64,000 nt of DNA from an uncultured candidatus Porisulfidus sp. (GTDB taxonomy: Bacteria > Pseudomonadota > Gammaproteobacteria > Poriferisulfidales > Oxydemutatoraceae): the NCBI GenBank assembly GCA_965215765.1, contig OZ244118.1:2415801-2479800 (forward strand), written 5' to 3'. Made by a program: the position numbers and the translations under genes. This document shows, in pieces, positions 38,401 to 61,934 of the stretch. How positions within the stretch are numbered: position 1 is the first letter of the stretch; the number at the start of each line of letters is the position of its first letter. Under the pieces are notes generated by a model, which was not told the origin of the DNA, ran no database searches, and saw only the letters and a list, made by a program, of their open reading frames with translations.

Positions 38401-41400
38401 CATAAAGGTTGTAGCCACGAACCGTTAAAAAGAGCGTATTCCCGCCTTCATGACGGGCGCGCAGCTTCTGCAACCAGTCCGATCCTCCCACGTAGTACAA
38501 CGATGCGGTTTCCTCAGCAGCGATCGATGGAGCCTCAATCCGGTAAGCGATCAGTTCTTTGGTGTGAAGCGGAGGCTCCCAACGCAGCAACAAGGCAGAC
38601 GGGGATTTCCACTGCGCGAGCAGGCGCAAGGGTTTGCCAGGAGTCTCAAAGCCCTGCAGAACCGGCAGCGTCCTGTAATCTCCGAAGGACCAGATCTCGG
38701 CACTCCAGCCTGAGTATGTTGACCTTCCCGCACACGCCAGGCCGGGGGCGGTGGGACAACGCAGTTGCTGTAGCGTCCGCAAGGAGCCTGATCCCTGCCC
38801 GGCGTCATCTGCCACAAAAGGCATGCCGCCACCATTGGGGCCATTGACGCGAGGCAACGCTGCTGCGTAGCTGTCGGTAATGCCTTCCGAACTGCTGCCG
38901 GCAAAACTTCCGGACTGTCCGGCTCCGGACACCGAGCCTGCCGCATAGCTGCGGCTGACGGTGCCCTGATTGTTTGCCACAAGACCCGCGACCAGACCTT
39001 CCCCGGTCACAAAAGCTGTTGTGTAACTGTCAGTCACCGAGCCCCGGTTGTCTGCGACCAGACCACCCGCCCGAACTGCTCCTGACACCGAGCCTCCGGC
39101 ATAGCTTGTATCAATACTCCCGGTTACCAGATTTCTTCCGACCAGGCCACCCGCTACTTGGCCTCCCGGCTCTGCCGTCAGCTGTGCCGCGCTGCCGCTG
39201 ATCATGCCTGCGTTGATACCGACGAGTCCTCCCGCCACTTGCCCGCCAAAAAGTGAGCCCGTCACCCCGCTGTTCACGATCCTTCCTCCCTCGTTCCTGC
39301 CCGCCAGAGCACCCACGTTGACGCTTCCCCAAAGCTGTGCGTTCACCAGCACGACCTGCTGCAATAACCCGCCCCGAAGCTGCGCAAACATGCCGACATC
39401 TTCCAGCGCCTCAGAGCGCACCCTTAAATGGAAAATCTGATGACCGGCGCCATCAAGGGAACCGGAAAAATCAGCAATCGGCGCAAAGCCTTTTCCGGCT
39501 CGCCAGTCCCGGGATGGACCTGCCTCAATATCGCTTGCCAGCCGGTAGTGGGCTGCAGGAACAGAGCGAATGTCCTGCAATTGGCACAGCGTGGCAATCT
39601 GCCAGGGATTGTCCTCGCTGCCCGAACCGCCTGCCGATGCCAGGGCTTCCCCGTCGCACTGCCAGGGACGGGTAAATGCCGACAGGAAAAATGACGACCC
39701 TTCTCCAACATTGTTATAGGGCGTCGCCTCCACTTCATAGCGGCTATTGCTTGCCAGACCCGAAAATTCCACAACTGCGGATGTTTCGCCAGCTGTGTGC
39801 GCACGCTCCCGCTCCTGCACCAGTTCTCCCCCGGCGTACAACCGTACCCGGTAACCCAAACCTGAAGAAACCCCGACACTCGTATATCCGTAAGCCGGGT
39901 CTTCCGGTGATTGGCCGTAGCCGTCGTCAGCCGGAGCCATAAGAAACACCTGCAGCGAAAATGCCTGCGCCGATGCCCGAACGACCGTCAATTTGCCTGG
40001 GGCTCTCAGCAGTCTGATCACAACCGTCGTCGCTTCGCTCATGCCATGGCGGTTATATCCACGCACGCTGACTTGCAAGGTACTGTCCCTATATTCGGAA
40101 CGGAGGTTTTTCACCAGGTGCCTGCCGAGCGTAAAAGATGCGGATCCCGTTTCCAGGGAACGCCCTGCCACCTCCACCCAATAGCCGGCGTTCAGACTTC
40201 CTGTTTTCGCGGCTGTCCAGTTCAGTTCCAGATCACCTTCCAGGTTCCATCGCGCCTGCAGGCGTGAAGGGGGAGCAGGTGGCACTGCTTGCAGGGCGCG
40301 ATGGGTCGGGAGCGTCTGCTCGTCCCCGAAATACCAGATTTTGGTGCTCCAGCCGGAGTAACTGATTGCTCCCTGGCACGTGTCTCCCGGCAAAAGAGGA
40401 CACTGCAATTGCGCCAGCGTGCGGGAAAAATTGTTTTCTGTGGCGTCCTCTTCCCCGCTGCCCACGAGTTCCAGCGCGCTGCTGCCGACACCCGGCTCCA
40501 AGGCGTAATTCGCAACCATATCGGTGCCCACGGATTGCCCCACCAGCATGCCCGCCTGATTGTTCCCGTTAACCAGACCTGTCGCATAACTGTCCTCAAT
40601 ACTGATGTTTCTGTTGCGGAAGTGACCACTGTTTCCCGCCAGGCCGCCTACCTGCACATTCCCGCTGACCGAACCAGTCGCATAACTGTCGTCAATCGAG
40701 CCTCGACTGGTTCTTCCCACCAGCCCGCCTGCCTGCACATTCCCGCTGACCGCTCCGGTCGCATGGCTTCTGAGGATTGACCCTGAGTTGAGACCCACCA
40801 GACCTCCCACACGGTCCCCCGCGCCGATAACCATGCTGTCCGAGTAGCTGTCAACTATGGAATAGGGATGATCGTGCTGACCCACCAACCCGCCCACATC
40901 CTCTACCCCATTGACCGCTCCTGCCGAATAAGAGCCGCTTATAAAGCCATGGTTATAACCCGCCAGCCCGCCTACATATTGATGCCCGCTTACCGTTGAC
41001 TGCGCGTGGCAGTGGTAGATCGGAGCCACATTGAACCCCACCAGCCCACCAACACTGTTTGCGCCGCTCACACTTCCTCTCGCGTGCGAACTGCGTATCC
41101 TCGCGCCCCAGGCATTCCTGCCCACCAGTCCGCCTATCATGTTGCCGTGCCTCTGGAAATCAACCGTTCCGACAACGGTAGACTCCGAATGGCTGAGCTT
41201 GATTAAGCCATGATTCTCACCTGCCACTCCTCCCACACGATTCCGCCCGCCTATCAACCCAGTCACCGTGCTGCCCTTGATGCTTCCATTTGCCGCAACG
41301 CGTCCTGCCAGGGCTCCTGTTGCATTTCTGCCCCGCACCGTAACATTCACGAGTGCCAGCCTTTGCAGAGCACCACCGTTGAGCTTCCCGAACAGCCCGA

Positions 41401-44400
41401 CATGGTCTGCTTGCCCAGGATTGATCAAAAGACTCAGAATACTGTGACCACTCCCGTCCAGAGAGCCGGAAAAAGATTCAATCGGTGGAAAACCCTTTCC
41501 GTCTCGCCACTCGTGGCTTTGCTTCGCGTCTATATCGTTTGCCACCCGATAATCAGCTGCCGTGTCGTAACGTATTTCATGCAACTGGCAAAGTGTGCCG
41601 ATCTGCCAGGGGTCATCCTCGCTGCCAGAGCCCGCTGCCGTTATCACCGCTGCCCATGGACACGCGCCAACGTAGGTGAAAACCGGTGCTATCACCGTTG
41701 TTGAGCCTGCGCCCGTCTTGTTTCTGGCAAACATCCTGACTTCGTACCTGGAACCACCTTCCAGGCCTGAAAACTCCACTACGGTCGTGCTTGACCATTC
41801 CTGCTGTGTCACACGCCGCACTTCTTTCAACAGGCCTTTTGAAAACAGTTGCACGTGGTATGCGAGATCCAGCGCAACTCCGCCTGCCGGCTCCCCGTAC
41901 ACGTTGCTGCCCGGTGCGCGTCCGTAGCCATCATCAGCGGCTCCGGTAATGGTGACCTGTATTGTTGACAGCCCCGAAGCTGTCTGAGTCCCCACCTCCC
42001 CCGGAACTTTCATCAAATGGAAACTTCCCGACGCTGCATCTCCCGCAACGCCTCCTTTTACGCCGCGTATGGAATAGTGGATTTCACTGCCGCTGACGTA
42101 ATGCTCACGCAATTCAGCCATTAATGAGCCGCCAAGCGCGAAACGGGTTCCCTCGGTGTCTCGAATGATTCCGCCCACCTCCACCTCAAAAGAATTCACG
42201 GCAACTCCTTGATGCCACCCCCACTGCAGCGTCAATCCACCTCTCGAATTCCAGTTTGCACGGACTGCATGCGGGGCAACGGGAACATCCGTAACTGTCC
42301 GGAGCACGGGCAGCATGCGAGAGTTCCCGAAATACCAAATCCTCGTATCCCAACCCAGATACACACCAGCTGCCCGACAAAGATTGACGGGCAACATCGA
42401 GCACTTCATCTGCTCCACGGTGCGCAAATCACTGCCCTGTACTGCACCGTTATCCTCGCCCAGGAGGCTGTCCCCGTCGCCCAGCTTGCTGGCATAACTG
42501 CGGTCTATCGTGCCACCATTGACTCCGACCAGCCTGCCCGGCAAATCAGTTCCGCCTACAGCACCCGTGCTATAGGCACTTCTGACCAAGCCGCTGTTTT
42601 CGCCGACCAGTCCACCTGTCTGACTGTCTCCGGTCACTACGCCTCGTGCGTAACTGTTACCAATGCTTCCCCAGTTTTCGCCGACCAGACCCCCAACCTG
42701 GTTCTTTCCAGTCACACGTGCGTTCACGTTTGTATGGCTGTTCACGATGCTGGCGTTGCCCCCGTTCACACCCACCAGACCACCTGCCTGACTGCCTCCG
42801 GACACCGGGCCTTGTGCGTAGCTGTCACTGATGCTTCCCTTGTTATCGCCGACCAGACCACCTGCCTGACTGCCTCCGGACACCAGGCCTTGTGCGTAGC
42901 TGTCACTGATGCTTCCCTTGTTATCGCCCACCAGACCCCCAACCTGGTTCTTTCCAGTCACACGTACTCGCCCGTTTGTATAGCTATTCACGATCCTGGC
43001 GTTGCCCTCGCTCACACCCACCAGACCACCCACCTGACTGTCTCCGGACACTACGCTTTGCGCGTGGCTGTTGCTGATGCTTCCCCAGTTTTCGCCGACC
43101 AGACCCCCGACCTGGTTCTTTCCACGTACTTGCCCCTTGCTGTGGCTACTCACGATGCTGGCGTTTTTCAGGTTCATACCTACCAGACCGCCTACCTGAC
43201 TGTCTCCGGACACCGTGCTCCACGTGTAGCTGTCACTGATGCTTCCCCAGTTTTCGCCGACCAGACCCCCGACCTTGTTCTTTCCACGTACTTGCCTAAG
43301 TGCATGGCTACTCACGATCCTGGCTTCGTTCACACCCACCAAGCCCCCAATCCCGGGGGCTGCTCCGACAACATAGCTCTCCGTGTAGCTGCCACTGATG
43401 GTGCCGCCAAGGTGCCAACCCACCAGACCACCCACGTAGCCCCTCCCTGAGGCATGAGTCCCGGTCACATCTCCAGTCGCATCGCTGGAAGTGACCGAAC
43501 CCCTGTTTTTGCCCACCAGACCTCCGACTTGATTGCCTCCTGTTACTGCACCCCTCGCATGACTGCCCACAATCGTGCCACCGTCATTCTGACCCACCAG
43601 ACCGCCGGAAACCCATGTGTTGCGAGAATTCTTCCCAACCCTTACCGTCGACGTGCTGTTACGAATGACACCGCCCCGATTCAGGCCAACCAGCCCACCG
43701 ATGGTTTTGCCCCCGTCAACCTTGCCATCAACCATGCTGCCCTCAATCGTCCCCCGATCGTTCAGCCCAACCAGAGAACCGACATTCACTCCGCCGTTCG
43801 TCGAAAAATTCACCAGCTTCACGCGCTTCAGCAAGCCACCCTGCAACTCGCCAAACAACCCTGTGTTCTCGAATTCTCCGGCTGTTGCACTGACCTTCAA
43901 ATTGGAAATTTTGTAACCGTTGCCATCATAGGTGCCAGAAAAACCCTTGATCGGTGCAAAACCGTCTTTCCAGCCATGCGTCATCGTCGTTGCGTCTATA
44001 TCCTTGATCTGGACGTAGTGCGACTGAGGCGATGCTTCCATGTCGCGCAAATGGCACAGGTTTTCTACCTGGTAGGGATCAGTTTCAGTTCCGGAACCTG
44101 CCATGGCCTGCGAACTTATAGCGCACGCCTGATCTGGATCCATGTAGGGAAATTGGCTGCCGTTGTAATAGGTGTCTCCGTAATTGAGAATGTTGAAGGC
44201 TCTTTCGTCCGTGTAAATCCCTCCCATCCCATAATAAAATGAGGTGCAATCCCGACCCTCCTCGCCCGGATGGGCATTTAGAACCCCTATCATCATGCCG
44301 GTCTTTTTATAAAATGCGGATGAGCCGGACGCTCCAAACGTAGGAGAGATGCCCTTATACGTTAAATCCAAAAACCAGCAAATCGCTCCTTCGCAGAAAG

Positions 44401-45664
44401 GCGGGCCGCCTCTCTTACCGCCGACGCTCCCGAGTGAATCGGTCGCTGCCACTGCACTTTCAAACTCACCCAGCTGCTGAGGCTTGGAGCCAGAGTGGTG
44501 TACGGAGAAACCACTGAAAGTATCGGTAGTGCGGGTCATCCACTCCAGCAATTTATAATCTCCGTGCCCGATAAACCGTCCAGTAAGACGCACAATCGCC
44601 CAATCTCCACCCTCATCTCCCGGCACTCTTGCCTTTCCTGCCACGTATCTCACACCAAAGGCGTATGAATCACCAGGAAGACCGATGAAGAATGGCAAAA
44701 ACGGTTTGTCCACAGTGTTAGCGTACGCTTCAGGGAAAAGGTGAAACGCTGTCAGAATGTAGGGGGCTCCATCACCTGACTTGTTCTTTATAAAACTCCC
44801 AGTCCCGCAGCCAGCATCTCCGCCAAAATAGCGGCACATGCTTACGACACCTTTGGTCACATCCCGCACGTAAGCCGGGCTGTCGCTGTTTACATAGTTA
44901 TTGTTACCGGAAACAAATTCGTTGATGTTTGCGCGCTCGCAACTGTCGGCTTGTCTCCGAGGTGCCAGGTTCCTGACTCCCTCTCCGTATAAAACTCCGT
45001 TGTTATCCTTAAATGTGTGGCTCACTTTTTCGACCGAAAAAGGAAAATCGCCTGGCTCCAGGTGGTAACTGTCCGGAACCCAAAACTCTATGACAACGGT
45101 ATCACCAGACACCGGGAACGCCACAAAGCTGCCATCATTACGTGACAAGCCACGTCCCGTGTACTCTACGACCTCTTCATTGCTGTCTCCGGCGAAGGCA
45201 TAGACATTCACCGACATGCCCGGGTCGAGGGGAAACCCAGAAAAATGCAACCACAGCTGCAGGGCAGACGGAGAGCGAATCTGCGCCTGCCAGACATCAA
45301 GACCGTCTTCCTGTTTGACCAGTGCCCAGTTGGAACGCCTTAAATGGACGTCCCGGGCAAAGCTGGTGTAGTTGATCGTTGTCTCACGGAGCAGTTCACG
45401 AATTTGCTCTTGTTCCCGGGTACTGAAAGGCCCCAAGTCCAGTTGCTGTGCGCGGGCAGGATACAGAGTTCGAGTGGCTTCCCGGGCATTCCTCCCCTCC
45501 GAAAAGGGATAGGACGCATAGCCTTGATCTGCCAGAGATTCCTGATCCTGGCCGAAAACAAGAGAGCTCGACGTGATGATAGATACACCCACGAACAGCC
45601 ACTTCAGCCAACCATGGCTGCCGGAAATCTGCGTATCCGAAAATCTGAAACCTGCTTCTTTCAT
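35407..45664 (-). pseudogene. Giant GLUG/S1-protease paralog 2 (about 3,419 codons), interrupted by a +1 frameshift near 38044-38048 (ORF 37979..45664 of 2561 aa, then ORF 35407..38106 of 899 aa). Could be an authentic pseudogene, or a sequencing/assembly error in a repeat.
   Basis: The two ORFs overlap by 128 nt. Paralog 1 has 'gggtcaccgtccggatcg' where paralog 2 has 'gggtcaccgacccggatcg'. The protein is collinear with paralog 1 on both sides of the break ('...STIR' | 'VTRFPGCAGKGLKSAQGDG'). Confidence 0.65.
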
Positions 45665-47305
45665 TGTGAGTGCTTACGAGCCATGCGGGCAGAGAAAAGA
45701 GAGCCTGGCCATCCTGAGACATAAAATTCCCTGCACCACATTCGCTATCTGTTCTTCATGGCTACGCACTGAGCGATCCTCTGGCTCTGACCTTCACTCA
45801 CTCTCTGATGTCCCAGTACGGCTGTACGCGGTCAGGATACAGAGTTCGAGTGGCTTCCCGGGCATTCCTCCCCTCCGAAAAGGGATAGGACGCATAGCCT
45901 TGTTCTGCCAGAGACTCCTGATCCTGGCCGAAAACGAGTGAGCTTGACGTGATGATGGTTACACCCACGAGTAGCCACTTCCGCCAACCATGGCTGCCGG
46001 AAATCTGTGTATCCGGAAATCTGAAATCTGCTTTTTTCATTGTGAATGCCTACGAGCCATGCAGGCGGAGAAAAGAGAGCCTGACCACCCTGAGACATAA
46101 AATTCCCTGCACCACATTCGCTATCTGTTCTCCATGGCTGACGCACTGAGCGATCCTCTGGCTCTGACCTTCACTCACTCTCTGATGTCCCAGCACGGCT
46201 GTACGCAGGCAGGATACAGAGTTCGAGTGACTTCCCGGGCATTCCTCCCCTCAAAAAAGGGATGGGACGCGAAGCCTTGTTCTGCCAGAGATTCCTGATC
46301 TTGGCCGACAGCAAACGCGCTTGACGTGATGATGGTTACACCCACGAGCAGCCACTTCAGCCAACCATGGCTGCCGGAAATCTGCGCGTCCGGAAATCTG
46401 AAACCTGCTTCCTTCATTGTGAATGCCTACGAGCCATGCGGGCGGAGAAAAGAGAGCCTGACCACCCTGAGACATAAAATTCCCTGCACCACATTCGCTA
46501 TCTGTTCTCCATGGCTGACGCACTGAGCGATCCTCTGGCTCTGACCTTCACTCACTCTCTGATGTCCCAGCACGGCTGTACGCAGGCAGGATACAGAGTT
46601 CGAGTGGCTTCCGGAACATTCCCCCCCTCAAAAAAGGGATGGGACGCGAAGCCTTGTTCTGCCAGAGATTCCTGATCCTGGCCGAAAACGAGTGAGCTTG
46701 ACGTGACGATGGATACACCCACGAGTAGCCACTTCCGCCAACCATGGCTGCCGGAAATCTGTGTATCCGGAAATCTGAAATCTGCTTTTTTCATTGTGAA
46801 TGCCTACGAGCCATGCAGGCGGAGAAAAGAGAGCCTGACCACCCTGAGACATAAAATTCCCTGCACCACATTCGCTATCTGTTCTCCATGGCTGACGCAC
46901 TGAGCGATCCTCTGGCTCTGACCTTCACTCACTCTCTGATGTCCCAGCACGGCTGTACGCAGGCAGGATACAGAGTTCGAGTGACTTCCCGGGCATTCCT
47001 CCCCTCAAAAAAGGGATGGGACGCGAAGCCTTGTTCTGCCAGAGATTCCTGATCCTGGCCGAAAATGAGTGAGCTTGACGTGATGATGGATACACCCACG
47101 AGTAGCCACTTCCGCCAACCATGGCTGCCGGAAATCTGTGTATCCGGAAATCTGAAATCTGCTTTTTTCATTGTGAATGCCTACGAGCCATGCAGGCGGA
47201 GAAAAGAGAGCCTGACCACCCTGAGACATAAAATTCCTTGCACCACATTCGCTATCTGTTCTCCATGGCTGACGCACTGAGCGATCCTCTGGCTCTGACC
47301 TTCAC
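45665..47305 (-). repeat. 4.3 tandem copies of a 377-bp unit that duplicates the giant-gene 5' leader (about 150 bp) plus start codon and first ~68 codons. Each copy ends in an 80-aa signal-peptide ORF (MKKADFRFPDTQISGSHGW...).
   Basis: Start codons of the leader-ORFs at 46040, 46417, 46794 and 47171 (period 377). Breakpoint just after codons '...RTLYPA'. Confidence 0.9.
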
Positions 47306-47719
47306 TCACTCTCTGATGTCCCAGCACGGCTGTACGCGCCGAAAAATCACTAGTGGGTCAATTGTACAAAATAACGCCCATTTCAGCAAATTATTATAAG
47401 AAGATACCGGCCTCATCCGACCGGAAAACCCCGAAAACAGTACCAAGGTGTGCAGTCTTATTTGTGAGCTTTTTGGTCTCCAAGGGGGTGAATCAGTGGC
47501 AATAGTCGGCACTGCAACTTCCTGTTTTTAACCACGAAAAACGTGAAAGTTGGTATTTGCAATTCGTATGATTTCAGTTTTGTGACAGCTTCCAAAGTTC
47601 ACCAAAAGCCCCAATTCAAGGCCTGTTGTTTTAAGACAATTCAACAGTTGTGCTTCATGCTCATCAACAATGTTTGTCATGGCAGATATAGTCAGGCTTA
47701 TGGACTTGCTTTAAAGGTT

Positions 47720-48421
47720 CACCCTCTGTGCCTTAAAAGAAGTGCTCCTTATGGGAAACTCCTTCTCCGGACACTCCTGATCCACTGCCTCAAGAAAACC
47801 ACACCTTCATCAGAAAACAAAACCCTTTCGTTTTTTCGGGCTATTAAACTCGTGGTTCATGGTTTCTCTCCAGTTGCCCGGGCTCTTCATCAAAGGAATG
47901 CTCCTTATGGAAAACTCCTTCTCCAGACACTCCTGATGCACTGCCTCAAGGAAAATACACCTCACTTCCCTGAACCGCATGGCATTCATCAGAAAACAAA
48001 ACCTTTTCGCATTTTAGCGGTTATTAAACTCGTGGTTCATAGCTCTCTCGCCAGCTGCCCGGGCTCTTCACCAAAGGAATGCTCGTTATGGAAAACTCCT
48101 TCTCCGGACACTCCTGATGCACTGCCTCAAGGAAACCACACCTCATTTCCCTGAATCGCATGGCATTCATCAGGAAATAAAATTTTTCGTATATTTCGCG
48201 GTTATTAAACTCATGGTTCATAGCTCTCTCGCCAGTTACCCGGGCTCTTCACCAAAGGAATGATCCTTATGGAAAACTCCTTCTCCGGACACTCCTGATG
48301 CACTGCCTCTTAGAAACTCCTTCTCCAAACACTCCTGGCACACTGCCTCAAGTAAGCCACACATTCATCAGAAAACAAAACCTTTTCGCGTTTTTCGCGG
48401 TTGTTAAATTCGTGTATGCCC
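47720..48421. repeat. Downstream repeat family, about 181-bp unit (about 4-5 copies), abutting the stop codon of paralog 3
   Basis: '(t/c)tattaaactc(g/a)tggttcat' at 47842, 48022, 48202 and 48402. 'ttatgg(g)aaaactcc' at 47749, 47905, 48086 and 48267. Confidence 0.85.
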
Positions 48422-51400
48422 TCAGCGAATCATGCCGCCCAGGAATACCCTCAGGCGCAATTTCTTGACGTGATGCGGACCTGGTCTCGGCGTTGTCGGA
48501 ATCTCGGGATCCCAGTTGATAAATTGACTCACTCCTGGCAGCTCAGCCACGCTGTCCCGGGGGAATGCCCGGACTTCGTACGCGACACCGCCCTGCAACC
48601 CCGTAAACTCCGTCCTGACGGCTCCCCCGGGCGTCGGCATCGCAACAGACTGTTCCTCTATCAGTTCCCCGTATGAAATCAGTTGTACCCGATACCCCAA
48701 GCCGAGCAATATTCCGTCAACCGGGGCTCCGAAATCAGCATGATCCGCAGTGCGTCCGTAGCCATCATTTCCCGAATATTGCAAGTGTACCTGCACACGA
48801 CCATTCGCCTTGTGCATCAGCTGCATGGCCAATGTTCCCTCAAGAACGTCGAGCAAGGTAAATGCTGCAGTGCTCATCGCGCCCGTTCCGGCACGGTTGA
48901 CTGCCCGGAGCGAATAGCGTATCTGCTCTCCTCCTGCGTGCTTCTTGCGCAGCTGCGCCAAGGCATGGCTTGACAACACATAAGAAGCGGCGGTTCCTGC
49001 GACGGGGTGGCTTTTTCCGTCCACAAAAAGTTGGTAGCTGTCTATCGTCGCCCCGTTGCTGCTCGCCGCTTCCCAACTCAGGTTCACCCGATCTGCGGAC
49101 TTCCACCTGGCTCGCAAGCCCGAAGGTCTGCCAGGCACCGCTATGGTGCTGAACGCGCTCCTGTTTTCGGATGCCTGGGCGGGCTCCCCGGCACCCGCCC
49201 GGTTGCGCGCATAGACCTGTAACGAATAGCTTCTCTTCGGCAGCAAGTCGGTGATCTCAATCTCGGTGTCAAAAGCACCTGCCGAGAAAAAGGTCTCGGT
49301 GCTGCGTCCTGCAGCACTCACAACCACCACATAGCCAAAACCGGAGCCTGCAACGCGGTCAGGGGAAGTCGCAAGCGCATCACCCGCCAGGGGAGCGCAA
49401 TCGTCATGTCCCATGATCATCAACACCAGGCGCGCAGTGGTTTGGCCGGGCACCAGCTCCGTTATCGTCGTCGCGCCCGGAAGACCGGGCAAATAGAAAT
49501 GACCGACTGCCGGATAGCCAGCGACATCTCCGCGCACAGCGCGAAGACGGTACGGGTGGGGGCAAGCCCCCTGTCTGTTTTTCCGAAACCCGGCCAGAAA
49601 ATCACCGTTGAAATCAAAAGTCGGTGCTGTGACTTCCCGTATTGTTCCTGCCAGCTCAAGTTCGTAGGAATCAACCGCTGGACTTCCCGCCGCCCAAGTA
49701 AAGCGCAGATGATCCGAAGATTCCCAGCTCACCGCCAAATCAACCGGTGTGGCAGGAATGTCGGCAAGCGCGCGCAGCAAGGGCAACGTGCGGGTATTGC
49801 CAAAATGCCAGGCTCCCGGTTCCCAGCCGGCATAAGTCGTGGCACCTGCGCATCTCTGCCCCGCCGCAGTCGGGCAACGCAGCTGGGTTAAAGTTCGAGG
49901 TGAACTGCTGCCCGTCGAGCCATTGCCCACCAAAGCTGCCTGTGCAGACACGGGTGCGTAACTGCGATCAATCACCGCATCCGGAGCAGAATAACCTGCC
50001 AGACTCCCGGTGCTGCCCGACTCCCCAACAACCCTGTTCACCGCATAGCTGTCCTGAATGCGGCGGATATTGCTTCCGACCAACCCCCCGGTGATGGAGC
50101 GACCCCATACCTCACCGAGTGCATAGCTCGCATGGACAGAACCGGAGTTGATGCCCGCCAGTCCGCCAACACGGCTATCTCCGCTGACCGACACGTCGGC
50201 ATAGCTATAGGCAATGGTGCTTCCGCTGTAGCCGACCAGACCGCCGGCGCGCGAGCCGTCCACAGCAATGGCCGAACCTGTCGCGTAACAGTGCAAAATC
50301 GTGCTTTCCTGGCTATAGCCAACCAGACCGCCAGCATTGTCCCGCCCTTCACCCGAGACGCGCACCGCCGCTTCGGCACTGCTGTACAAAATAGCGGCTC
50401 CCAGAGCCAGACCTGCCAGACCACCGGCAGACTCAAGCGCGCTTACTTGCGAAGCCCTCACCGTGCTGCCCACAACCCGACCTTTTGCTTTCACATAACC
50501 GACCAGACCGCCGACGTACCTGCCCCCGTCAACCTCGGCACTGGCACCACTGCTGATCAGCAACCCTCCGTTGCCACCCGCCAGCCCGCCAATGTTGGCT
50601 CCAGCTCTGTTGCCGGAAACCTGTGCAGATCTCACGACGCTGTTCATGACCGTTCCGTCGTTAAAGCCGACCAGGGCACCGACACTGTTTTTTCCTTTTA
50701 CCCACGCATCAACGAGCACCACCCCTTTGGCGATTCCGTCTTCTGCAAGCCTGGAAAACAGGCCAACCGTATCCGTTTCCGGGCGGTTAATGTACAGAGC
50801 AGAGATTTGCCGCCTTGCCCCGTCGAAAGTGCCTGAAAAAGGCTCTATCGGATGAAAGCCGGCACCGCCTGACCACTCCTGACTCGGGCTGGCGTCAATG
50901 TCTGCCACCTGCACATAGTGAGCGTACAGATCAGAGCGCACATCCTGCAGTTGGCACAGCGTACCAATTTGCCACGGGTTGTCGCCGCTGCCGTCACCCG
51001 ATGTACCCTTCAGGCCTTTGCCGGCGCATTCCGGAAAACGGGTCACCGTCCGGAACGTTGAAGGCGATCCGGTACCCACTGTGTTATGGGCGAAGGCTTC
51101 CAGCCGATATGCAAAGGCACTTTTGAGCCCCGCAAATTCCACCGTGACCGGGTTCAGAGGACTCCCCGGCGGAATGTCGCGTTCTTCAACCAGCTCCCCG
51201 GTCGCATACAGACGTATCCGGTAAGCCAGGTGCAAATCCATGGCTTCCGCTGACGCTGCGTAATCAGCGTCAACCGGCCTGCGGCCATAGCCATCATTGG
51301 CAGGGGCTGTAAAGCTGAGTCTCAGCGTGGAGACCCCCGGCACCACGCGCATATCAGCCGGAGAATCAGGAACATCCAGCAGGCGCACGGAAACACGGGC

Positions 51401-54400
51401 AGCTTCGCCAACACCATAAAGGTTGTAGCCGCGAACCGTTAAAAAGAGCGTATTCCCGCCTTCATGACGGGCGCGCAGCTTCTGCAACCAGTCCGATCCT
51501 CCCGCGTAGTACAACGATGCGGTTTCCTCAGCAGCGAGCGACAGAGCCTCAATCCGGTAAGCGATCAGTTCTCTGGTGTGAAGCGGAGGCTCCCAACGCA
51601 GCAACAAGGAAGACGGGGATTTCCACTGTGCCAGCAGGCGCAAGGGTTTGCCAGGAGTCTCAAAGCCCCGCAGAACCGGCAGCGTCCTGTAATCGCCAAA
51701 GGACCAGGTCTCGGCACTCCAGCCTGAGTATGTTGACCTTCCCGCACACGCCAGGCCGGGGGCAGTGGGGCAACGCAGTTGCTGCAGCGTCCGCAAGAAG
51801 CCTGATCCCTGCCCTGCGTCATCTGCCACAAAAGGCATGCCGCCACCATTGGCGCCATTGCCGCGAGGCAACGCTGCCGCATAGCTGTCGGCAATGCCTC
51901 CCGAACTGCTGCCGGCAAAACTTCCAGGCTGTCCGGCTCCGGATACCGACCCTGCCGCGTAGCTGCGACTGACGGTGCCCTGATTGTCCGCCACAAGACC
52001 CGCGACCAGACCTTCCCCGGTCACAAAAGCTGTTGTGTAACTGTCAGTCACCGAGCCCCGGTTGTCTGCGACCAGACCACCCGCCCGAACTGCTCCTGAC
52101 ACCGAGCCTCCGGCATAGCTTGTATCAATACTCCCGGTTACCAGATTTCTTCCGACCAGGCCACCCGCTACTTGGCCTCCCGGCTCTGCCGTCAGCTGTG
52201 CCGCGCTGCCGCTGATCATGCCTGCGTTGATACCGACGAGTCCTCCCGCCACTTGCCCGCCAAAAAGTGAGCCCGTTGCGCCGCTGTTCACGATCCTTCC
52301 TCCCTCGTTCCTGCCCGCCAGGGCTCCCACGTTGACGCTTCCCCAAAGCTGCGCGTTCACCAGCACGACCTGCTGCAACAGACCGCCCTGAAGCTGCGCA
52401 AACATGCCGACATCTTCCAGTCGTCTCAGAGCGCACCCTTAAATGGAAAATCTGATAACCGGCACCATCAAAGGAACCGGAAAAATCAGCAATCGGCGCA
52501 AAGCCTTCTCCGGCTCGCCAGTCCCGGGATGGACCTGCCTCAATATCGCTTGCCAGCCGGTAGTGGGCTACAGGAACAGAGCGAATGTCCTGCAATTGGC
52601 ACAGCGTGGCAATCTGCCAGGGATCGTCCTCGCTGCCCGAGCCGCCCGAACCGCCTGCCGACATCAGGGCTTCCCCGTCGCACTGCCAGGGACGGGTAAA
52701 TGCCGACAGGGAAAATGACGACCCTTCTCCAACATTGTTATAGGGTGTTGCCTCCACTTCATAGCGACTATTGCTTGCCAGACCCGAAAATTCCACAACT
52801 GCAGATGTTTCGCCGGCTGTGTGCGCACGCTCCCGCTCCTGCACCAGTTCTCCCCCGGCGTACAACCGTACCCGGTAGCCCAGACCTGCGGAAACCCCGA
52901 CACTCGTATATCCGTAAGCCGGGTCTTCCGGTGATTGGCCGTAGCCGTCGTCAGCCGGAGCCAGAAGCAACACCTGCAGCGAAAATGCCTGCGCCGATGC
53001 CCGAAGGTCTGTCAATTCGCCTGGGGCTCTCAGCAGCCTGATCGCAACCGTTGTCGCTTCACTCATGCCATGACGGTTATATCCACGTACGCTGACTTGC
53101 AAGGTACTGCCCCTATATTCGGAACGGAGGTTTTGCACCAGGCGCCTGCCGAACGTAAAAGATGCGGACTCCGTTTCCAGGGAACGCCCTGCCACCTCCA
53201 CCCAATAGCCGGCATTCAGGCTTCCTGTTTTTGCAACTGTCCAGCTCAGTTCCAGATCACCTTCCAGGTTCCATTTCGCCTGCAGGCGCGAAGGGGGAGC
53301 AGGTGGCACTGCTCGCAGGGCGCGATGAACCGGAAGCGTCTGCTCGTCCCCGAAATACCAGATTTTGGTGCTCCACCCGGAGTAGCTGACTGCTCCCTGG
53401 CACGTGTCTCCCGGCAAAAGGGGACACTGCAGTTGCGCCAGCGTACGGGAAAAGTTGTTTTCTGTGGCATCCTCTTCCCCGCTGCCCACGAGTTCCAGCG
53501 CACTGCTGCCGACACCCTGCTCCAAGGCGTAATTCTCAGCCATATCGGTGTTTTCGGAATGTCCCACCAGCATGCCCGCCTGATTATTCCCGTTAACCAG
53601 ACCAGCCGCATAACTGTTCACAATCCTGATGTTGTTGTCGGTGCTGCGCTCACTGTTTCCCGCCAGCCCGCCTATCTGCGCTTTCCCGCTCACCGAACCG
53701 GTCGCATAACTGTCGACAATCGAGCTGTTCCTGCTTTCTCCCGCCAAGCCGCCCACCTGCTCATTTCCGCTGACCGCTCCGGTCGCATGGCTCCTGATGA
53801 TTGACCCTGAGCTGAGGCCCACCAGACCTCCCACACGATTCCCCGCGCTGGTAACCGTGCTGTCCGAGTGGCTGTCAACTATGGAACTGGAATTGTGGTT
53901 ACCCGCCAGCCCGCCCACATCTTCTACCCCGCTGACCGCTCCCGTCGAATAAGAGCCGCTTATAAAGCCATAGTTGGAACCTGCCAGCCCGCCCACAGAA
54001 TGATGCCCGCTCACCGTTGACTGCACATGGCTGTGATAGATCGGAGCCTGATTGAGCCCTACCAGTCCACCAACATTGTTTGTGCCGCTCACACCTCCTC
54101 TCGCGTGCGAACTGCGTATCCTCGCACCCGGGAAGTTTTTGCCCACAAGTCCGCCTATTGCGTGGCCGTGCCCCTGGGAATCAGTTGTTCCGGCAACGGT
54201 GGACTCCGAATGGCTGAGCTTGATCAAGCCATGATTCTCACCTGCCACTCCTCCCACACGTCTCCGACCGCCTATCAGCCCCGTCACCGTGCTGCCCTTG
54301 ATGCTTCCATTTGCCGCAACACTTCCTGCCAGGGCTCCTGTTGCATCTCTGCCCCGCACCGTGACATTTACCAGAGCCAGCCTTTGCAGGGCACCACCGC

Positions 54401-57400
54401 TGAGCTTCCCGAACAGCCCGACATGATCCGTTTGCCCAGGATTGATCAAAAGACTCAGAATGCTGTGACCACTCCCGTCCAGAGAACCGGAAAAAAATTC
54501 AATCGGTGAGAAGCCCTTTCCGTCCCGCCACTCGTGGCTTTGCTTCGCGTCTATGTCGTTTGCCAGCCGATAATGCGCTGCCGTGTCGTAACGTATTTCC
54601 TGCAACTGGCAAAGTGAGCCAATCTGCCAGGGGTCATCCTCACTGCCAGAACCTGCTGCTGTTATCATCGCTGCCCATGGACACGCCTCAACGTAGGTGA
54701 AAACCGGTGCTACCTCCGTTGGGCCTGCGCCCGCCTTGTTTTCGGCAAACACCCTGACTTCGTACCTGGAACCACCTTCCAGACCTGAAAATTCCACTAC
54801 GGTCGAACTTGACCATTCCTGCTGTGTCATGCGCCGCTCTTCTTTCAACAGGCCTTTTGAGAACAGTTGCACGTGGTATGCGAGATCCGGGGCAACTCCA
54901 CCTGCCGGTTCCCCGTATGCGCTGCTGCCCGGTGCACGTCCGTAGCCATCAGCAGCAGCCTCGGTAATGGTGACCTGTATTGTTGACAGCCCCGAAGCTG
55001 TCTGAGTCCCCACCTCCCCCGGAACTTTCATCAAATGGAAACTTCCCGACGCTGCATCTCCCGCAACGCCTCGTGCTACGCCGCGTATGGAATAGTGGAT
55101 TTCACTGCCGCTGGCGTAACGCTCACGCAATTCAGCCATCAATGAGCCGCCAAGCGCGAAATGGAATACCTTGGTGTCTCGAATGATTCCGCCCACCTCA
55201 AGCTCGTAGAAATTCACGGCAACTCCTTGATGCTCCCACTGCAGCGTCAATCCACCCGTCGAATCCCGGCTTTCCCGGACTGCATGCGGGGCAACGGGAA
55301 CATCCGTAACTGTCCGGAGCACGGGCAGTACACGAGAGTTCCCGAAATGCCAAATTCGCGTATCCCAACCCAGATACACGCCAGCTGCCCGGCAAAGATT
55401 GACGGGCAATATTGAACACTTCATCTGCTCCACGGTGCGCAAATCACTGCCCTGTACTGCACCGTTATCCTCGCCCACAAGGCTGTCCCCGTCCCCCCCC
55501 TTGCTGGCATAGCTGCGGGCTATCGTGCCACTGTTGACTCCGACCAGCCTGCCCGGCAAATCAGTTCCGCCTACAGCACCAGTGCTATAGGCACTTCTGA
55601 CCGTACCGCTGTTTTCGCCGACCAGCCCACCTGTCTGACTGTCTCCGGTCACTGCGCCTCGTGCATAACTGTTACCAATGCTTCCTTTGTTATCGCCGAC
55701 CAGACCGCCGACTTGATCCTTCCCGCTCACACGTACTTCCTGGCGTGTATGGCTATTCACAATCCTGGCGTTGTCCCCGTTCACACCCACCAGACCACCT
55801 GTCTGACTGTCTCCGATCACTGCGCCTTGTGCGTAGCTGTCACTGACGCTTCCTTTGTTATCGCCGACCAGACCACCTGTCTGACTGTCTCCGATCACTG
55901 CGCCTTGTGCGTAGCTGTCACTGATGCTTCCTTTGTTTTCGCCGACCAGACCGCCGACTTGATCCTTCCCGCTCACACGTACTTCCTGGCGTGTATGGCT
56001 ATTCACGATATTGGCGTTGCTTTCGTTCACACCCACCAGACCACCCACCTGACTGTCTCCGGACACTGAGCCTCTTCGTGCGTAGTTGTTGCTGATGCTT
56101 CCTGCGTTTCTGCCGACCAGACCCCCAACCTGGTTCTTTCCAGTCACACGTGCATTCCCGCCTGTATGGCTATTCACGATCCTGGCGTTGCCCTCACTCA
56201 CACCCACCAGACCGCCCACCTGGCTGTCTCCGGACACCGTAGAAAACCCGATGCTGTTGCTGATGCTTCCTCTGTTTTCGCCGACCAGACCCCCGACCTT
56301 GTTCTTTCCACGTACTTCCTTGTATGCACGGCCATACACGATGCCGGCTTCGTTCACACCCACCAAGCCCCCAATCCCGGGGGCTGCTCCGACAACCTTG
56401 CTATTCGTGTGGCTGTAACTGATGGTGCCGCCAAGGTGCCAACCCACCAGACCACCCACGTAGCCCACTTCGGTGCTAGCCCCGGTCACATCTCCAGTCG
56501 CATCGCTGGAAGTAACCGAACCCCTGTTTTTGCCCACCAGACCTCCGACTTGATTGCCTCCTGTTACTGCCCCCCTCGCATGACTGCCCACAATCGTGCC
56601 ACCGTCATTCTGACCCACCAGCCCGCCGGCAACCCATGTGACGCTAGAGTTCTCCCCAACCCTTACCGTCGCCGTGCTGTTGCGAATGACACCGCCCTGA
56701 TTCAGGCCAACCAGCCCACCGATGGTTCTGTACCCGTCAACCTTGCCATCAACCTCGCTGTCCTCAATCGTCCCTTGATTGTTCAGCCCAACCAGAGAAC
56801 CGACATTCACTCCGCCTTCCGTCAAAAAACCCACCAGCTTCACACGCTTCAGCAAGCCACCCTGCAGCTCGCCAAACAGCCCTATATTCTTGAATGCTTC
56901 GTCTGCTACGTTGATCTTCAAAGTGGAAATTTGGTAACCGTTGCCATCGTAAGTGCCAGAAAAATCCTTGATCGGTGTAAAACCGTTTTTCCAGCCATGC
57001 GTCATCGTCGATGCGTCTATATCTTTGATCTGGATGTAGTGCGACTGGGGCGATGTTTCCATGTCGCGCAAATGGCATGCGTTTTCTACTTGGTAGGGAT
57101 CAGTTTCAGTTCCGGAACCCGCCATGGCCTGCGAATTTATAGCGCACGCCTGATCTGGATCCATGTAGGGAAATTGGCTGCCATTGTAATAGGTGTCTCC
57201 GTAATTGAGAATGTTGAAGGCTCTTTCGTTCGCGTAAATCCCTCCCATCCCGTAATACCATGAGGTGCATTCCCGACCCTTTCCCGGATTGGCATTCAGA
57301 ACCCCTATCATCATGTCGGTTTCTTTATAAAACGCGGATGAACCGGACGCTCCATACGTAGGAGAGATGCCCTTATACGTTAAATCCAAAAACCCGCAAA

Positions 57401-58670
57401 TCGCTCCTTCGCAGAAAGGCGGGTCGCCTCTCTTGCCGCCGACGTGGTAGAGTGAGCCGTCATTCGTTGCCACTGCACTTTCAAACTCATTCCACTGCTG
57501 AGGCTTGGAGCCGGAGTGGTGTACGGAGTAACCACTGAAAGTGTTGCTGGTGCGGGTCATCCACCCCAGCAATTTATAATTTCCGTGTCCGATAAACGAC
57601 CCGGTAAGACGTATAATCGCCCAATCACCACCCTCGTCTCCCGGCTCTCTTGCCTTTCCTGCCACGTATCTCGCGCCAAAGGCAAGGGAATTGCCAAGAA
57701 GACCGATGAAGCGCGGCAAAAACGGTTTGTCCACAGCGTCAGCGTCCACTTCAGTGAAAAGGTGAAACGCTGTCAGAATGTAGGGGGCTCCATCACCTGA
57801 CTTGTTCTTTATAAAACTCCCAGTCGCGCAGGCAAGTGGGCGGCAGATGCTTACGACACCTTTGGATCCATTCTGCACGTAAGCCGGGCTGTCGCCGTCT
57901 ACATAGGTATTGTTATCGTAAAAAGGATCGATGCTTGCGCGCTCGCAACTGCCGGCTTGTCTCCGAGGCACCAGGTTCCTGACTCCCTCTCCGTATAAAA
58001 CTCCGTTGTTATCCTTGAATGTGTGGCTCACTTTTTCGACCGAAAAAGGAAAATCGCCTGGCTCCAGGTGGTAACTGTCCGGAACCCAAAACTCTATGAC
58101 AACGGTGTCACCAGACACCGGGAACGCCACAAAGCTGCCATCATTACGTGACAAGCCGCGGCCCGTGTACTCTACGAGCTCTTCATTGCTGTCTCCGGCG
58201 GGGGCATAGACATTCACCGACATGCCCGGGTCAAGGGGAAAACCAGAAAAATATAACCACAGCCGCAGGGCAGACGGAGAGCGAATCTGCGCCTGCCAGA
58301 CATCAAGGCCGTCTTCCTGTTTGACCAACGCCCAGTTGGAACGCCTTAACCGGACGTCCCGGGCAATGCTGGTGTAGTTGACCGTTGTCGCACGAAGCAG
58401 TACACGAATTTGCTCCTGTTCCCGGGTGCTGAAAGATCCCAAGTTCAGTTGCTGTGCGCTGGCAGGATACAGAGTTCGAGTGGCTTCCCGGGCATTCCTC
58501 CCCTCCGAAAAGGGATGGGACGTGAAGCCTTGATCTGTCGGAGATTCCTGATCCTGACCGAAAACGAGTGAGCTTGACGTGATGATGGACACACCCACGA
58601 GCAACCATTTCAGCCAACCATGGTTACCGGAAATCTGCGCATCCGGAAATCTGAAACCTGCTTCTTTCAT
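48422..58670 (-). pseudogene. Giant GLUG/S1-protease paralog 3 (about 3,416 codons), interrupted by a +1 frameshift near 52421-52426 (ORF 52125..58670 of 2181 aa, then ORF 48422..52405 of 1327 aa)
   Basis: Paralogs 1 and 2 read 'ttccagc(a/g)cctcag', paralog 3 reads 'ttccagtcgtctcag' (one extra base). The protein switches from '...GYQIFHLRVRSE' to out-of-frame text. The downstream ORF resumes at 'MFAQLQGGLLQQVVLVNAQLWG', collinear with the paralogs. Confidence 0.65.
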
Positions 58671-60700
58671 TGTGGGTGCTTACGCATCACGCGGGCGGAG
58701 AAAAGAGAGCCTGACCACCCTGAGACATAAAATTCCCTGCACCGCATTCGCTATCTGTTCTCCATGGCTGACGCACTGAACGATCCTCTGGCTCTGACCT
58801 TCGCTCACTCTCTGATGTCCCAGTACGGCTGTGCGCGGGCAGGATACAGAGTTCGAGTGGCTTCCCGGGCATTCCTCCCCTCCGAAAAGGGATGGGACGT
58901 GAAGCCTTGATCTGTCAGAGATTCCTGATCCTGACCAAAAACGAATGAGCTTGACGTGATGATGGACACACCCACGAGTAGCCACTTCCGCCAACCATGG
59001 CTGCCGGAAATCTGCGCATCCGGAAATCTGAAACCTGCTTCTTTCATTGTGGGTGCTTACGCATCACGCGGGCGGAGAAAAGAGAGCCTGACCCACCAGC
59101 GACATAAAATTCCCTGCACCACATTCGCTATCTGTTCTCCATGGCTGACGCTCTGAGCGATCCTCTGGCTCTGACCTTCGATCACTCTCTGATGTCCCAG
59201 TACGGCTGTGCGCGGGCAGGATACAGAGTTCGAGTGGCTTCCCGGGCATTCCTCCCCTCAAAAAAGGGATGGGACGCGGAGCCTTGTTCTGCCAGAGATT
59301 CCTGATCCTGGCCGAAAACGAATGAACTCGACATGATGATGGGCACACCCACGAGCAGCCACTTCAGCCAACCATGGCTGCCGGAAATCTGCGCATCCAG
59401 AAATCTGAAACCTGCTTCTTTCATTGTGAATGCTTACGAGCCATGCAGGCGGAGAAAAGAGAGCCTAACCGCCCTGAGACATAAAATTCCCTGCACCACA
59501 TTCGCTATCTGTTCTCCATGGCTACGCACTGAGCGATCCTCTGGCTCTGACCTTCACTCACTCTCTGATGTCCCAGTACGGCTGTACGCGAGCAGGATAC
59601 AGAGTTCGGTGGCTTCCCGGGCATTCCTCCCCTCCGAAAAGGGATGGGACGTGAAGCCTTGATCTGTCGGAGATTCCTGATCCTGGCCGAAAACGAGTGA
59701 GCTTGACGTGATGATGGTTACACCCACGAGCAGCCACTTCAGCCAACCATGGCTGCCGGAAATCTGCGTATCCGGAAATCTGAAATCTGCTTTTTTCATT
59801 GTGAATGCCTACGAGCCATGCAGGCGGAGAAAAGAGAGCCTGACCACCCTGAGACATAAAATTCCCTGCACCACATTCGCTATCTGTTCTCCATGGCTGA
59901 CGCACTGAGCGATCCTCTGGCTCTGACCTTCACTCACTCTCTGATGTCCCAGCACGGCTGTACGCAGGCAGGATACAGAGTTCGAGTGGCTTCCGGAACA
60001 TTCCCCCCCTCAAAAAAGGGATGGGACGCGAAGCCTTGTTCTGCCAGAGATTCCTGATCCTGGCCGAAAACGAGTGAGCTTGACGTGACGATGGATACAC
60101 CCACGAGTAGCCACTTCCGCCAACCATGGCTGCCGGAAATCTGTGTATCCGGAAATCTGAAATCTGCTTTTTTCATTGTGAATGCCTACGAGCCATGCGG
60201 GCGGAGAAAAGAGAGCCTGACCACCCTGAGACATAAAATTCCCTGCACCACATTCGCTATCTGTTCTCCATGGCTGACGCACTGAGCGATCCTCTGGCTC
60301 TGACCTTCACTCACTCTCTGATGTCCCAGCACGGCTGTACGCAGGCAGGATACAGAGTTCGAGTGGCTTCCCGGGCATTCCTCCCCTCCGAAAAGGGATG
60401 GGACGCGAAGCCTTGTTCTGCCAGAGATTCCTGATCCTGGCCGAAAACGAGTGAGCTTGACGTGATGATGGATACACCCACGAGTAGCCACTTCCGCCAA
60501 CCATGGCTGCCGGAAATCTGCGTATCCGGAAATCTGAAATCTGCTTTTTTCATTGTGAATGCCTACGAGCCATGCAGGCGGAGAAAAGAGAGCCTGACCA
60601 CCCTGAGACATAAAATTCCCTGCACCACATTCGCTATCTGTTCTCCATGGCTGACGCACTGAGCGAACCTCTGTCTCTGACCTTCACTCACTCTCTGATG
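58671..60700 (-). repeat. 5.4 tandem copies of the 377-bp 5'-leader/start unit upstream of paralog 3
   Basis: Leader-ORF starts at 59047, 59424, 59799, 60176 and 60553 (periods 377/375). Copies differ by a few substitutions (MKEAGFRF vs MKKADFRF). Confidence 0.9.
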
Positions 60701-61039
60701 TCCCAGCACGGCTGTACGCGCCGAAAAATCACTTAGTGGGTTAATTGTACAAAATAACGCCCAATCCGGCAAATTATTATTAAGAAGATACCGACCCCAT
60801 CCGACCGGAAAACCCCGAAAACAGTGCCAAGGCGTACTGTCTTATTTGTGGGCTTTTTGGTCTACAAGGGGTTGAATCAGTGGCAATAGTCGGCACTGCG
60901 ACTTCCTGTTTTTAACCGCGAAAAACGTGAAAGTTGGTATTTGCAATTCGTATGATTTCAGTTTTGTGACAGCTTCCAAAGTTCACCAAAAGCCCCAATT
61001 CAAGACCTGTTGTTTTAAGACAATTCAACAGTTGTGCTT

Positions 61040-61934
61040 CATGTTCATCAGTAATGTTTGTCATGGCAGATATAGCCAAGCTTATGGACTTGCTTTAAAG
61101 GTTCATCCTCTGTGCCTTGAAAGGAATGCTCCTTGTGGAAAACTCCTTCTCCAAACACTCCTGGCACACTGCCTCAAGAAAACCACACATTCATCAGAAA
61201 ACAAAACCTTTTCGCATTTTAGCGGTTATTAAACTCGTGATTTATAGTTCTCTCGCCAGTTGCCCGGGCTCTTCACCAAAGAAATGCTCGTTATGGAAAA
61301 CTCCTTCTCCGGACACTCCTGGCACACTGCCTCAAGAAAACCACAACCCCACTTCTTTGAATCACATAGCATTCATAAGGAAACAAAACCTTTTCGCATT
61401 TTAGCGGTTATTAAACTCGTGGTTCATAGCTCTCTCGCCAGCTGCCCGGGCTCTTCACCAAAGAAATGCTCCTTATGGAAAACTCCTTCTCCGGACACTC
61501 CTGATGCACTGCCTCAAGGAAACCACACCTCATTTCCCTGAATCGCATGGCATTCATAAGGAAACAAAACCTTTTCGCATTTTAGCGGTTATTAAACTCA
61601 TGGTTCATAGCTCTCTCGCCAGTTGCCTGAACTCTTCACCAAGGGAATGCTCCTTTTGGAAAACTCCTTCTCCAAACACTCCTGATGCACTGCCTCAAGA
61701 AAACCACACATTCATCAGAAAACAAAACCCTTTCGTGTTCTTCGCAGTTATTAAACTCGTGGTTCATAGTTCTCTCGCCAGTTGCCCGGGCTCTTCACCA
61801 AAGGAATGCCCCTTATGGAAAACTCCTTCTCCAAACACTCCTGGCACACTGCCTCAAGGAAACCACACATTCATCAGAAAACAAAACCCTTTCGTACTTT
61901 TCGTCGGCTGCGGTTGTTAAATTCGTGTATGCCC
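61040..61934. repeat. Downstream repeat family, about 160-182-bp unit (about 5 copies), abutting the stop codon of paralog 4
   Basis: 'ttattaaactcgtg' at 61226, 61408, 61589 and 61748, and 'ttgttaaattcgtg' at 61914. Confidence 0.85.

Follow-up and report, generated by a model that had tools for sequence, protein, structure and literature searches.

We report that a giant GLUG/fn3 gene, designated paralog 3, is preceded by a tandem array of its own gene start in a 64,000-nucleotide stretch (the window) of contig OZ244118.1 from an uncultured candidatus Porisulfidus sp. The array, referred to here as leader array 3 (58451..60720, minus strand), consists of six head-to-tail units of 377 bp (one of 375 bp), each holding approximately 150 nt of the 5' leader, the ATG, and 73 codons of the gene. 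Leader array 3 is real, and a chance origin of such a repeat is impossible. It is most likely a tandem duplication across a gene boundary with little or no function, and on balance it probably leaves expression unchanged or lowers it slightly. As to its origin, we favor, with some reserve, a duplication at a microhomology followed by unequal exchange and conversion under nearly neutral conditions.

Structure of leader array 3 and its decoy reading frames

Tandem Repeats Finder placed the array at 58451-60720 on the minus strand (period 377, 6.0 copies, 94% matches, no indels, score 3847), and the limits given here combine this output with the sequence itself. An initial annotation of the window had placed it at 58671-60700 with 5.4 copies; an array is indeed present there, but these limits omit the proximal unit (58451-58670, the first 220 nt of the gene) and approximately 20 nt of the distal edge. 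Read on the minus strand, the six ATGs are located at 60553, 60176, 59799, 59424, 59047, and 58670, with spacings of 377, 377, 375, 377, and 377 nt. Each unit extends from approximately +17 in the 5' leader, counted from the predicted transcription start, to codon 73. Pairwise, the units differ at 1-37 of 377 positions, that is, by up to 10%. The earlier statement that the copies have diverged and are not trivially collapsed reads is thus correct, and the peptide variants quoted for it (MKKADFRF/MKEAGFRF and FSEGRNAREAT/FFEGGNVPEAT) were found. The base composition of the unit (G 111, C 93, T 88, A 85) is not A-rich, and its length of 377 nt is not a multiple of three.

The five upstream units give rise to decoy open reading frames (ORFs) of 80 or 81 codons, which run out of frame across the junction between units and end in YPACVQPCWDIRE followed by a stop codon. 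Each is built from a predicted signal peptide, approximately 35 residues, and an out-of-frame tail of 8-9 residues. From the distal end, all on the minus strand, these are A3.6 (60311..60553; 80 aa, with the YPACVQPCWDIRE junction tail), A3.5 (59934..60176; 80 aa, identical to P0002), A3.4 (59554..59799; 81 aa, identical to P0008), A3.3 (59182..59424; 80 aa, identical to P0005), and A3.2 (58805..59047; 80 aa). The tails vary by unit (CVQPCWDIRE, RAQPYWDIRE, and a frameshifted tail in A3.4, where a 1-nt deletion near the unit end changes the ORF tail), and those of the distal units contain CxxxC. No Pfam family matched the decoy ORFs. The only unit in frame with paralog 3 is the proximal one, A3.1, whose ATG at 58670 is the true gene start. 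Another decoy ORF, P0001 (111 aa, on a 2,997,607-bp contig and not in the window arrays), carries an extra in-frame internal duplication of approximately 31 residues in the signal-peptide region, with LLVVGVSIITSSSFVFGQDQESL occurring twice; we read this internal repeat as a nested, smaller tandem duplication.

The distal edge of the array is separated by 23 nt from the end of a sigma-70-like promoter site, TTGCCG-N17-TACAAT (60744..60772, minus strand), which lies outside the array. Each giant gene has exactly one match to the pattern TTGCYR-N17-TACAAT (35128-35100, 47389-47361, and 60772-60744), and the arrays contain none; a consensus scan limited to sigma-70-like sites detected a single minus-strand site and none within the unit. 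Multiplication of the promoter, one per unit, was rejected, since the sole promoter-like site of each gene lies outside the arrays. Because the unit carries no promoter, we infer that transcription runs through leader array 3, which would probably form one long transcribed leader, extended by 1.9 kb and containing five decoy ORFs. The promoter site is conserved in all four paralogs (L001-L004) of the closest sequenced genome, the Ca. Oxydemutatoraceae metagenome-assembled genome OZ243039.1 (Chromatiales), where the conserved promoter and leader lie around 9750-10000. Across the promoter and approximately 185 nt of leader, column identity between the window and these four paralogs is 86%, which exceeds the conservation of the proteins (47-68% identity to paralog 1 over the first 500 residues).

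Several candidate elements in this conserved leader were considered and set aside. A riboswitch or other structured leader RNA was rejected, since Rfam gave no match to the leader at gathering scores and only chance matches at E up to 1, the covariation term was -0.04 kcal/mol, and the folding z-score of -1.0 was not unusual. A 26-codon upstream ORF, which ends as ATGA at the start codon, was dropped because its frame is lost in L002 and L003, where it would fuse in frame with the gene. A 66-aa antisense ORF present in each unit was dropped as well, the relatives having stops in all frames. The units share no terminator; a single weak terminator-like site occurs in A3.3 only.

Junction and common history of the two window arrays

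A sister array, leader array 2, precedes paralog 2 (45445..47337, minus strand; 377 bp x 5.0, 94%), and its junction and flanks are those of leader array 3. All internal units of both arrays share one novel junction (CCTGCCYGCGYACAGCCGTRCTGGG), with single-base variants in A2.2 (A at the second-to-last C of CCTGCC) and in A3.4 (T at the last C). The junction site is a 9-nt microhomology, GCGYRCAGC, whose partners are GCGTACAGC in the leader and GCGCACAGC at codons 71-73; the two correspond over 9 nt with one mismatch and are 377 nt apart. Both sites are visible in the single-copy leader of paralog 1 (34691..35098, minus strand). A single-copy leader was found in paralog 1 and in all four OZ243039.1 paralogs, and the novel junction is absent there; we take this single-copy arrangement, as seen in paralog 1, to be the ancestral one. 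A lone novel junction at a microhomology is the signature expected of an illegitimate join or a template switch, and we infer such a join here. The head-to-tail repeats, the one shared junction, and the microhomology in the parental sequence are the features of a tandem segmental duplication.

The initial annotation had noted the same unit and breakpoints in both arrays, in agreement with the common junction sequence and distal edge; it had also regarded the two as independent, and this view is contradicted by the comparison. The distal flank is common to arrays 2 and 3 and comprises the promoter, a remnant of a PDDEXK_3 gene, and 181-bp arrays, with spacers 94% identical over 2.66 kb. Among the distal units, a single position of 377 distinguishes A2.4 from A3.5, and eight of 377 distinguish A2.5 from A3.6. 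The shared junction and flanks, together with these near-identical distal units, indicate that both arrays descend from one. The proximal units are up to 10% apart and show no clean pairing between the arrays; by position, the two distal units alone pair clearly, and alignments anchored at the distal or at the proximal end both gave approximately 94%. All four allele combinations occurred in 215 of 666 pairs of informative sites, indicating that the units are mosaics. The simplest history would be one ancestral array, copied en bloc with a gene-plus-spacer segment of approximately 13 kb, followed by the gain of an extra unit in array 3 and by repeated conversion. The substitution spectrum of the units is ordinary, with 59 of 80 polymorphic columns showing transitions only (34 C/T and 25 A/G) and 21 others. 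Mutagenesis like that of a diversity-generating retroelement was rejected on this spectrum, which has no adenine-specific pattern, although no search was aimed at a reverse transcriptase.

Independent contigs were obtained by a protein search seeded with one decoy ORF, a leader-peptide seed that biases the search toward finding leader arrays. The search returned 14 small proteins, three of them identical to window units and encoded on the 2,997,607-bp contig, presumably the genome from which the window derives, and the remainder from ENA assembly ERZ25071281. Contig L006 (43x) is 98.1% identical to the window over 16.9 kb (window 38032-54956) and has an array of 377 bp x 5.0; L008 (2x) is 97.7% identical, with 376 bp x 5.0; and L009 (2x), approximately 90% identical, has the same junction and decayed frames. 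On both L006 and L008, the sister array has giant-gene sequence on both flanks. Some units recur unchanged (L006.5 = A2.5, L006.4 = A2.4, and L008.5 = A3.6), while the gene-near units are swapped or novel across the window, L006, and L008, and L006.2 shows at least 31 differences from every other unit. As for copy-number polymorphism of the contingency type, the paralog-2 locus has five units in each of the three versions from one sample (window, L006, and L008). Over 38032-54956, the window and L006 diverge unevenly, by 0 to 33 positions per 377 columns in gene bodies and array alike; many bins have 0 and others 15-33. This patchiness is typical of conversion tracts and suggests that, within one population, the giant paralogs are still undergoing gene conversion with one another. 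A scan of JGI metagenome contigs with an 18-mer of the conserved leader gave 73 matches, all by chance and none aligning to the unit.

The presence of five units in one array and six in the other, together with the mosaic units, could be an indirect trace of RecA-dependent homologous exchange altering copy number. In the duplication-amplification pathway, as described for E. coli lac and ampC, a microhomology join is followed by unequal exchange (PMC1428787). We propose that a unit bounded by the 9-nt repeats in the leader and at codons 71-73 was joined at the novel junction. By the logic of the duplication-amplification model, an illegitimate join or template switch would have produced the first duplicate, and homologous unequal exchange would have added more copies. 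The comparison of the two loci shows that the array was then copied with the 13-kb segment, giving arrays before paralogs 2 and 3, and that gene conversion among the leader copies alters unit content more visibly than copy number. With the promoter outside the unit, transcription would yield a 1.9-kb leader transcript with five translatable decoy ORFs, and the last unit alone would enter the gene. The array could persist since this last copy leaves the gene intact, as in the thiS-thiG and HAD-gene arrays described below.

Recurrence of leader duplication and the weighing of function

Leader arrays with a 305-bp unit, whose junction differs from that of the 377-bp type, are present on five other contigs of the same metagenome in 1.9 to at least 4.9 copies. 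These are L005 (9985-10557, 1.9 copies), L083 (9970-10555, 1.9 copies), L084 (3102-4242, 3.8 copies), L007 (9380-10581, 4.0 copies), and L085 (274-1776, at least 4.9 copies, the contig beginning within the array). The 305-bp unit extends from -24 to codon 94 and gives 102-codon ORFs that end in ELLSARMMRKHLQ and whose TGA overlaps the next ATG (ATGA). On L005 and L083, the upstream unit belongs to another paralog subfamily than its gene, the copies being 83% identical. Some upstream units on L007 and L084 have lost their frame, and broken or decayed copies are found on L007, L084, and L009. Leader duplication is thus recurrent in this giant gene family, with at least two origins as judged by the 377-bp and 305-bp junctions.

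Arrays of long units were also found at other gene boundaries of the window. A 149 bp x 4 array (314-908) lies 3' of a redoxin gene. A 464 bp x 3 array (7527-8926, plus strand) covers the 3' two-thirds of a HAD-family hydrolase gene (7341-7877) and downstream sequence, leaving two extra C-terminal fragments of that gene. The 214 bp x 4 array at 14476-15326 (minus strand) comprises the last 30 or so codons of thiS, the spacer, and thiG up to codon 37; its junction has a 4-nt microhomology, CACT, and it retains an intact thiS at the distal end and an intact thiG at the proximal end. Approximately three copies of a 140/173 bp unit (16773-17387) lie 3' of thiO and include an 11-bp GCTCGGAGCCA microsatellite (17196-17247). 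In total, eight long-unit arrays (140-464 bp) at gene boundaries in 64 kb represent an unusual density, which suggests that replication or repair is biased in a lineage-specific way, or that selection acts only very weakly against insertions of this kind. At each boundary array, the flanking gene or genes survive intact in one copy. We conclude that duplications spanning a boundary are those that selection can tolerate, and the leader array fits this pattern without special selection.

The initial annotation had offered two readings of the leader arrays, a recurrent mechanism and selection on leader copy number. The former gains support, on evidence other than that given, from the 305-bp type on five contigs and from the boundary arrays at unrelated genes. 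The latter finds no support: the unit contains no promoter-like site, upstream copies are decaying at some loci, and five copies are present in three of three paralog-2 versions. In addition, the ratio of nonsynonymous to synonymous polymorphism (pN/pS), from small counts, is 0.62 in the upstream copies, compared with 0.31 in the gene-attached copies and 0.55-0.62 in the gene bodies.

Several observations nevertheless weigh against an array of little or no function. All nine upstream copies in the two window arrays have kept the ATG and an open frame of 80 or 81 codons. There are two junction types, and 5-6 copies occur at several loci, so that selection beyond mutational bias is possible. The conservation of the leader raises the point that extra copies could titrate a regulator. 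Taken together, the recurrent leader duplication, the nine intact upstream frames, and the conserved leader may reflect a modulatory role.

The strongest competing explanation, although we consider it unlikely, is an expression rheostat or phase-variation device, in which the amount of giant protein would depend on how many units separate the promoter from the real start. Transcript length, polarity after the decoy ORFs, ribosome loading, or titration of a leader-binding factor could each provide the route, and unequal exchange would reset the number. Such a device would account for the origin of two junction types within one gene family, several loci of which have between 2 and at least 5 copies, for the intact decoy ORFs in the window, and for the strong conservation of the leader across species; the ATGA overlap of the 305-bp ORFs with the next start would permit translational coupling. 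However, the paralog-2 locus keeps five copies in all three versions despite their differing unit content, and units that are up to 10% apart are not being quickly homogenized. The unit has neither a promoter-like site nor a terminator common to the units, and upstream copies are frameshifted or truncated on L007, L084, and L009. Moreover, similar arrays occur at housekeeping genes, and both array-bearing paralogs of the window (2 and 3) are themselves frameshifted. If unit number did affect expression, the locus would represent a new kind of copy-number switch. A contingency locus was rejected, since the proximal unit always keeps its start and frame and the promoter-like site lies outside the array.

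A related proposal, which we regard as doubtful, is that the leader arrays are selected as a bank of gene starts, which would give paralogs a longer stretch of homology for exchange, allowing leader swaps and the gain, loss, or chimeric rearrangement of genes, and/or that unit number tunes the expression of a host-facing adhesin. It draws on the occurrence of leader duplication twice, on the 5-6 units at several loci, and on the gene-adjacent units that differ between near-identical strains. If true, this would be a counterpart of silent-cassette systems with reversed polarity.

It is similarly doubtful that the units are stubs of deleted paralogs, whose bodies of approximately 10 kb would have been lost by deletion from the codon-73 site up to the leader site of the gene that follows. 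Adjacent units do differ by up to 10%, as much as paralogous genes, and the upstream 305-bp unit on L005 and L083 comes from a different paralog subfamily (83% identity), as expected of such stubs. However, the same 9-nt microhomology would have to be used independently at least five times over 13 kb. One junction followed by unequal exchange and conversion is a simpler account of the identical junctions, and the mosaic patterns already explain the divergence between units.

We attach very little probability to the idea that the decoy ORFs are functional small secreted peptides whose dosage the array raises. A start codon, a predicted signal peptide, and an open frame are present in 9 of 9 upstream window copies, and the distal units have the CxxxC tail. 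In contrast, this tail is an out-of-frame reading of the leader and varies (CVQPCWDIRE, RAQPYWDIRE, frameshifted in A3.4), the 305-bp type gives an unrelated tail (SARMMRKHLQ), and broken copies at other loci, the pN/pS of 0.62, and the lack of a Pfam match also speak against it. An over-expanded repeat produced by the assembly is just as improbable: the independent contigs retrieved cover the sister array and not array 3 itself, but the 1-37 differences between units allow reads to be placed unambiguously, the sister array stands with both flanks on two other contigs, one of which at 2x is near single-molecule evidence, and the same junction recurs on L009 at a locus approximately 90% identical to the window.

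The giant gene family and comparison with known systems

The window contains a tandem family of giant genes, and all relevant features lie on the minus strand. Paralog 1 (24414-34910) is intact and encodes 3498 aa. Paralog 2 (35407-45664) and paralog 3 (48422-58670; ORFs of 2181 and 1327 aa, starting in A3.1) are split by frameshifts, and paralog 4 (61935 to beyond the window) is represented by its 3' part only. The splits in paralogs 2 and 3 are due to one single-base insertion each, near 38034 and 52421, neither in a homopolymer run; on L006, the reading frame continues uninterrupted through the site where paralog 3 is frameshifted. In the related genome, the giant gene of L001 is likewise split (1422 + 2096 aa). 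Paralog 1 contains GLUG motifs (E = 6.7e-70), fn3 domains, and an M26_N-like region, and the domains of paralog 3 were assigned from this intact copy. Pfam gave no family for the first 400 residues of paralog 1, nor for the N-terminus of the full protein, and an extended signal peptide region (ESPR, PF13018), as known from type V secreted proteins, was rejected for lack of a match there. At the N-terminus of the paralogs lies a putative Sec signal peptide whose n-region is long (MKEAGFRFPDTQISGSHGWRKWLLVGVSIITSSSFVFG|QDQ).

The spacers between the giant genes contain further repeats and gene remains. The PDDEXK_3 (GxxExxY-type) gene remnant (Pfam E = 1.4e-8) is found in both leader-array spacers, 2-3 (47528-47680, minus strand; 50 codons) and 3-4 (60912..61064, minus strand; 50 codons, covering the C-terminal 39 of 117 profile positions), and is absent from spacer 1-2. 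A 181-bp (159-bp) tandem array lies directly after the stop of paralog 4 (61188..61901, minus strand) as part of the duplicated spacer; corresponding 181-bp arrays directly after giant-gene stops are located at 47806-48349 and, with approximately 1.5 units, at 35200-35400. Each 181-bp unit has an AT-rich hairpin-like stretch (GAAAAACACGAAAAGGTTTTGTTTTC). The first 24 kb of the window hold housekeeping genes (dsbD, pntAB, thiSG, and thiO) and an MSHA/type II secretion system (T2SS)-like cluster. This cluster (17427-23754, minus strand), directly 3' of paralog 1, encodes two T2SSE ATPases, a PilN-domain protein, and a secretin. The Ca. Oxydemutatoraceae family is mentioned in a sponge-holobiont study, and the array-bearing genome is likely that of a sponge symbiont.

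This study also provides a clean, datable case of a long-lived microhomology duplication across a gene boundary, with strings of decoy starts before an adhesin-like gene. Since the promoter and leader are more conserved than the proteins and exchange between the paralogs is patchy, the giant GLUG/fn3 family is a candidate case of host-facing surface proteins diversifying through recombination. A search of the literature on this lineage and on arrays of gene starts found nothing relevant, and the comparison below is with systems of other bacteria and with Borg repeats.

The closest parallel is amplification of the lac/ampC type, which likewise shows head-to-tail units, a single junction at a short direct repeat, and expansion by homologous exchange (PMC1428787). 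Those amplicons measure 7-40 kb or more and comprise entire genes; they are unstable and under selection for dosage (PMC1428787). In contrast, the unit described here is 377 bp long and contains a gene start only, with no evident dosage benefit, and the divergence of 1-10% between copies indicates that the array is old. The tandem repeats of Borgs are perfect, short (approximately 20 nt in the examples of that paper), A-rich, recent, and variable in the population, with lengths in multiples of three within ORFs (PMC9879509). Borgs resemble the present genome in being rich in direct tandem repeats, both genic and intergenic, in the frequent association of these repeats with extracellular proteins, and in partial repeats flanking the arrays (PMC9879509). 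The units studied here differ in that they are 140-464 nt long, 3-10% diverged, and not A-rich, in that 377 is not a multiple of three, and in the copy number, which is equal in three versions of the paralog-2 locus. Assignment to the Borg type was rejected, since the units are imperfect (1-37 of 377), long, and not A-rich.

Bacterial minisatellites and variable-number tandem repeats (VNTRs) with units of 100 bp or more, such as Wolbachia VNTR-105/141 and the mycobacterial interspersed repetitive unit (MIRU)-VNTR loci, have long imperfect units that are mostly intergenic and non-coding. They share with the present case long-unit tandem arrays at many loci of a host-associated genome, whereas the unit here carries most of a conserved leader, a start codon, and a signal peptide, giving decoy ORFs, and is exchanged between tandem paralogs. 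The vomp/badA genes of Bartonella are large tandem surface-protein genes that evolve by recombination; in both families the 5' and 3' ends are conserved, the middle parts vary, and conversion between copies is patchy. To our knowledge, arrays of isolated gene starts have not been described in families of the vomp/badA type.

Silent-cassette antigenic variation (pilS, vlsE, and msp2) employs partial, promoter-less copies of a variable region. The likeness lies in partial gene copies beside an expressed gene and in mosaic exchange, while the polarity is reversed, since the units here represent the conserved gene start (most of the leader, the ATG, and the signal peptide). Membership in the silent-cassette class was rejected because each unit carries the ATG and signal peptide and represents the most conserved part of the gene. 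Leader array 3 thus belongs to the known duplication-amplification class; what is new is a unit that consists of a gene start, arrays that are old, mosaic, and common to tandem giant paralogs, and a second junction type.

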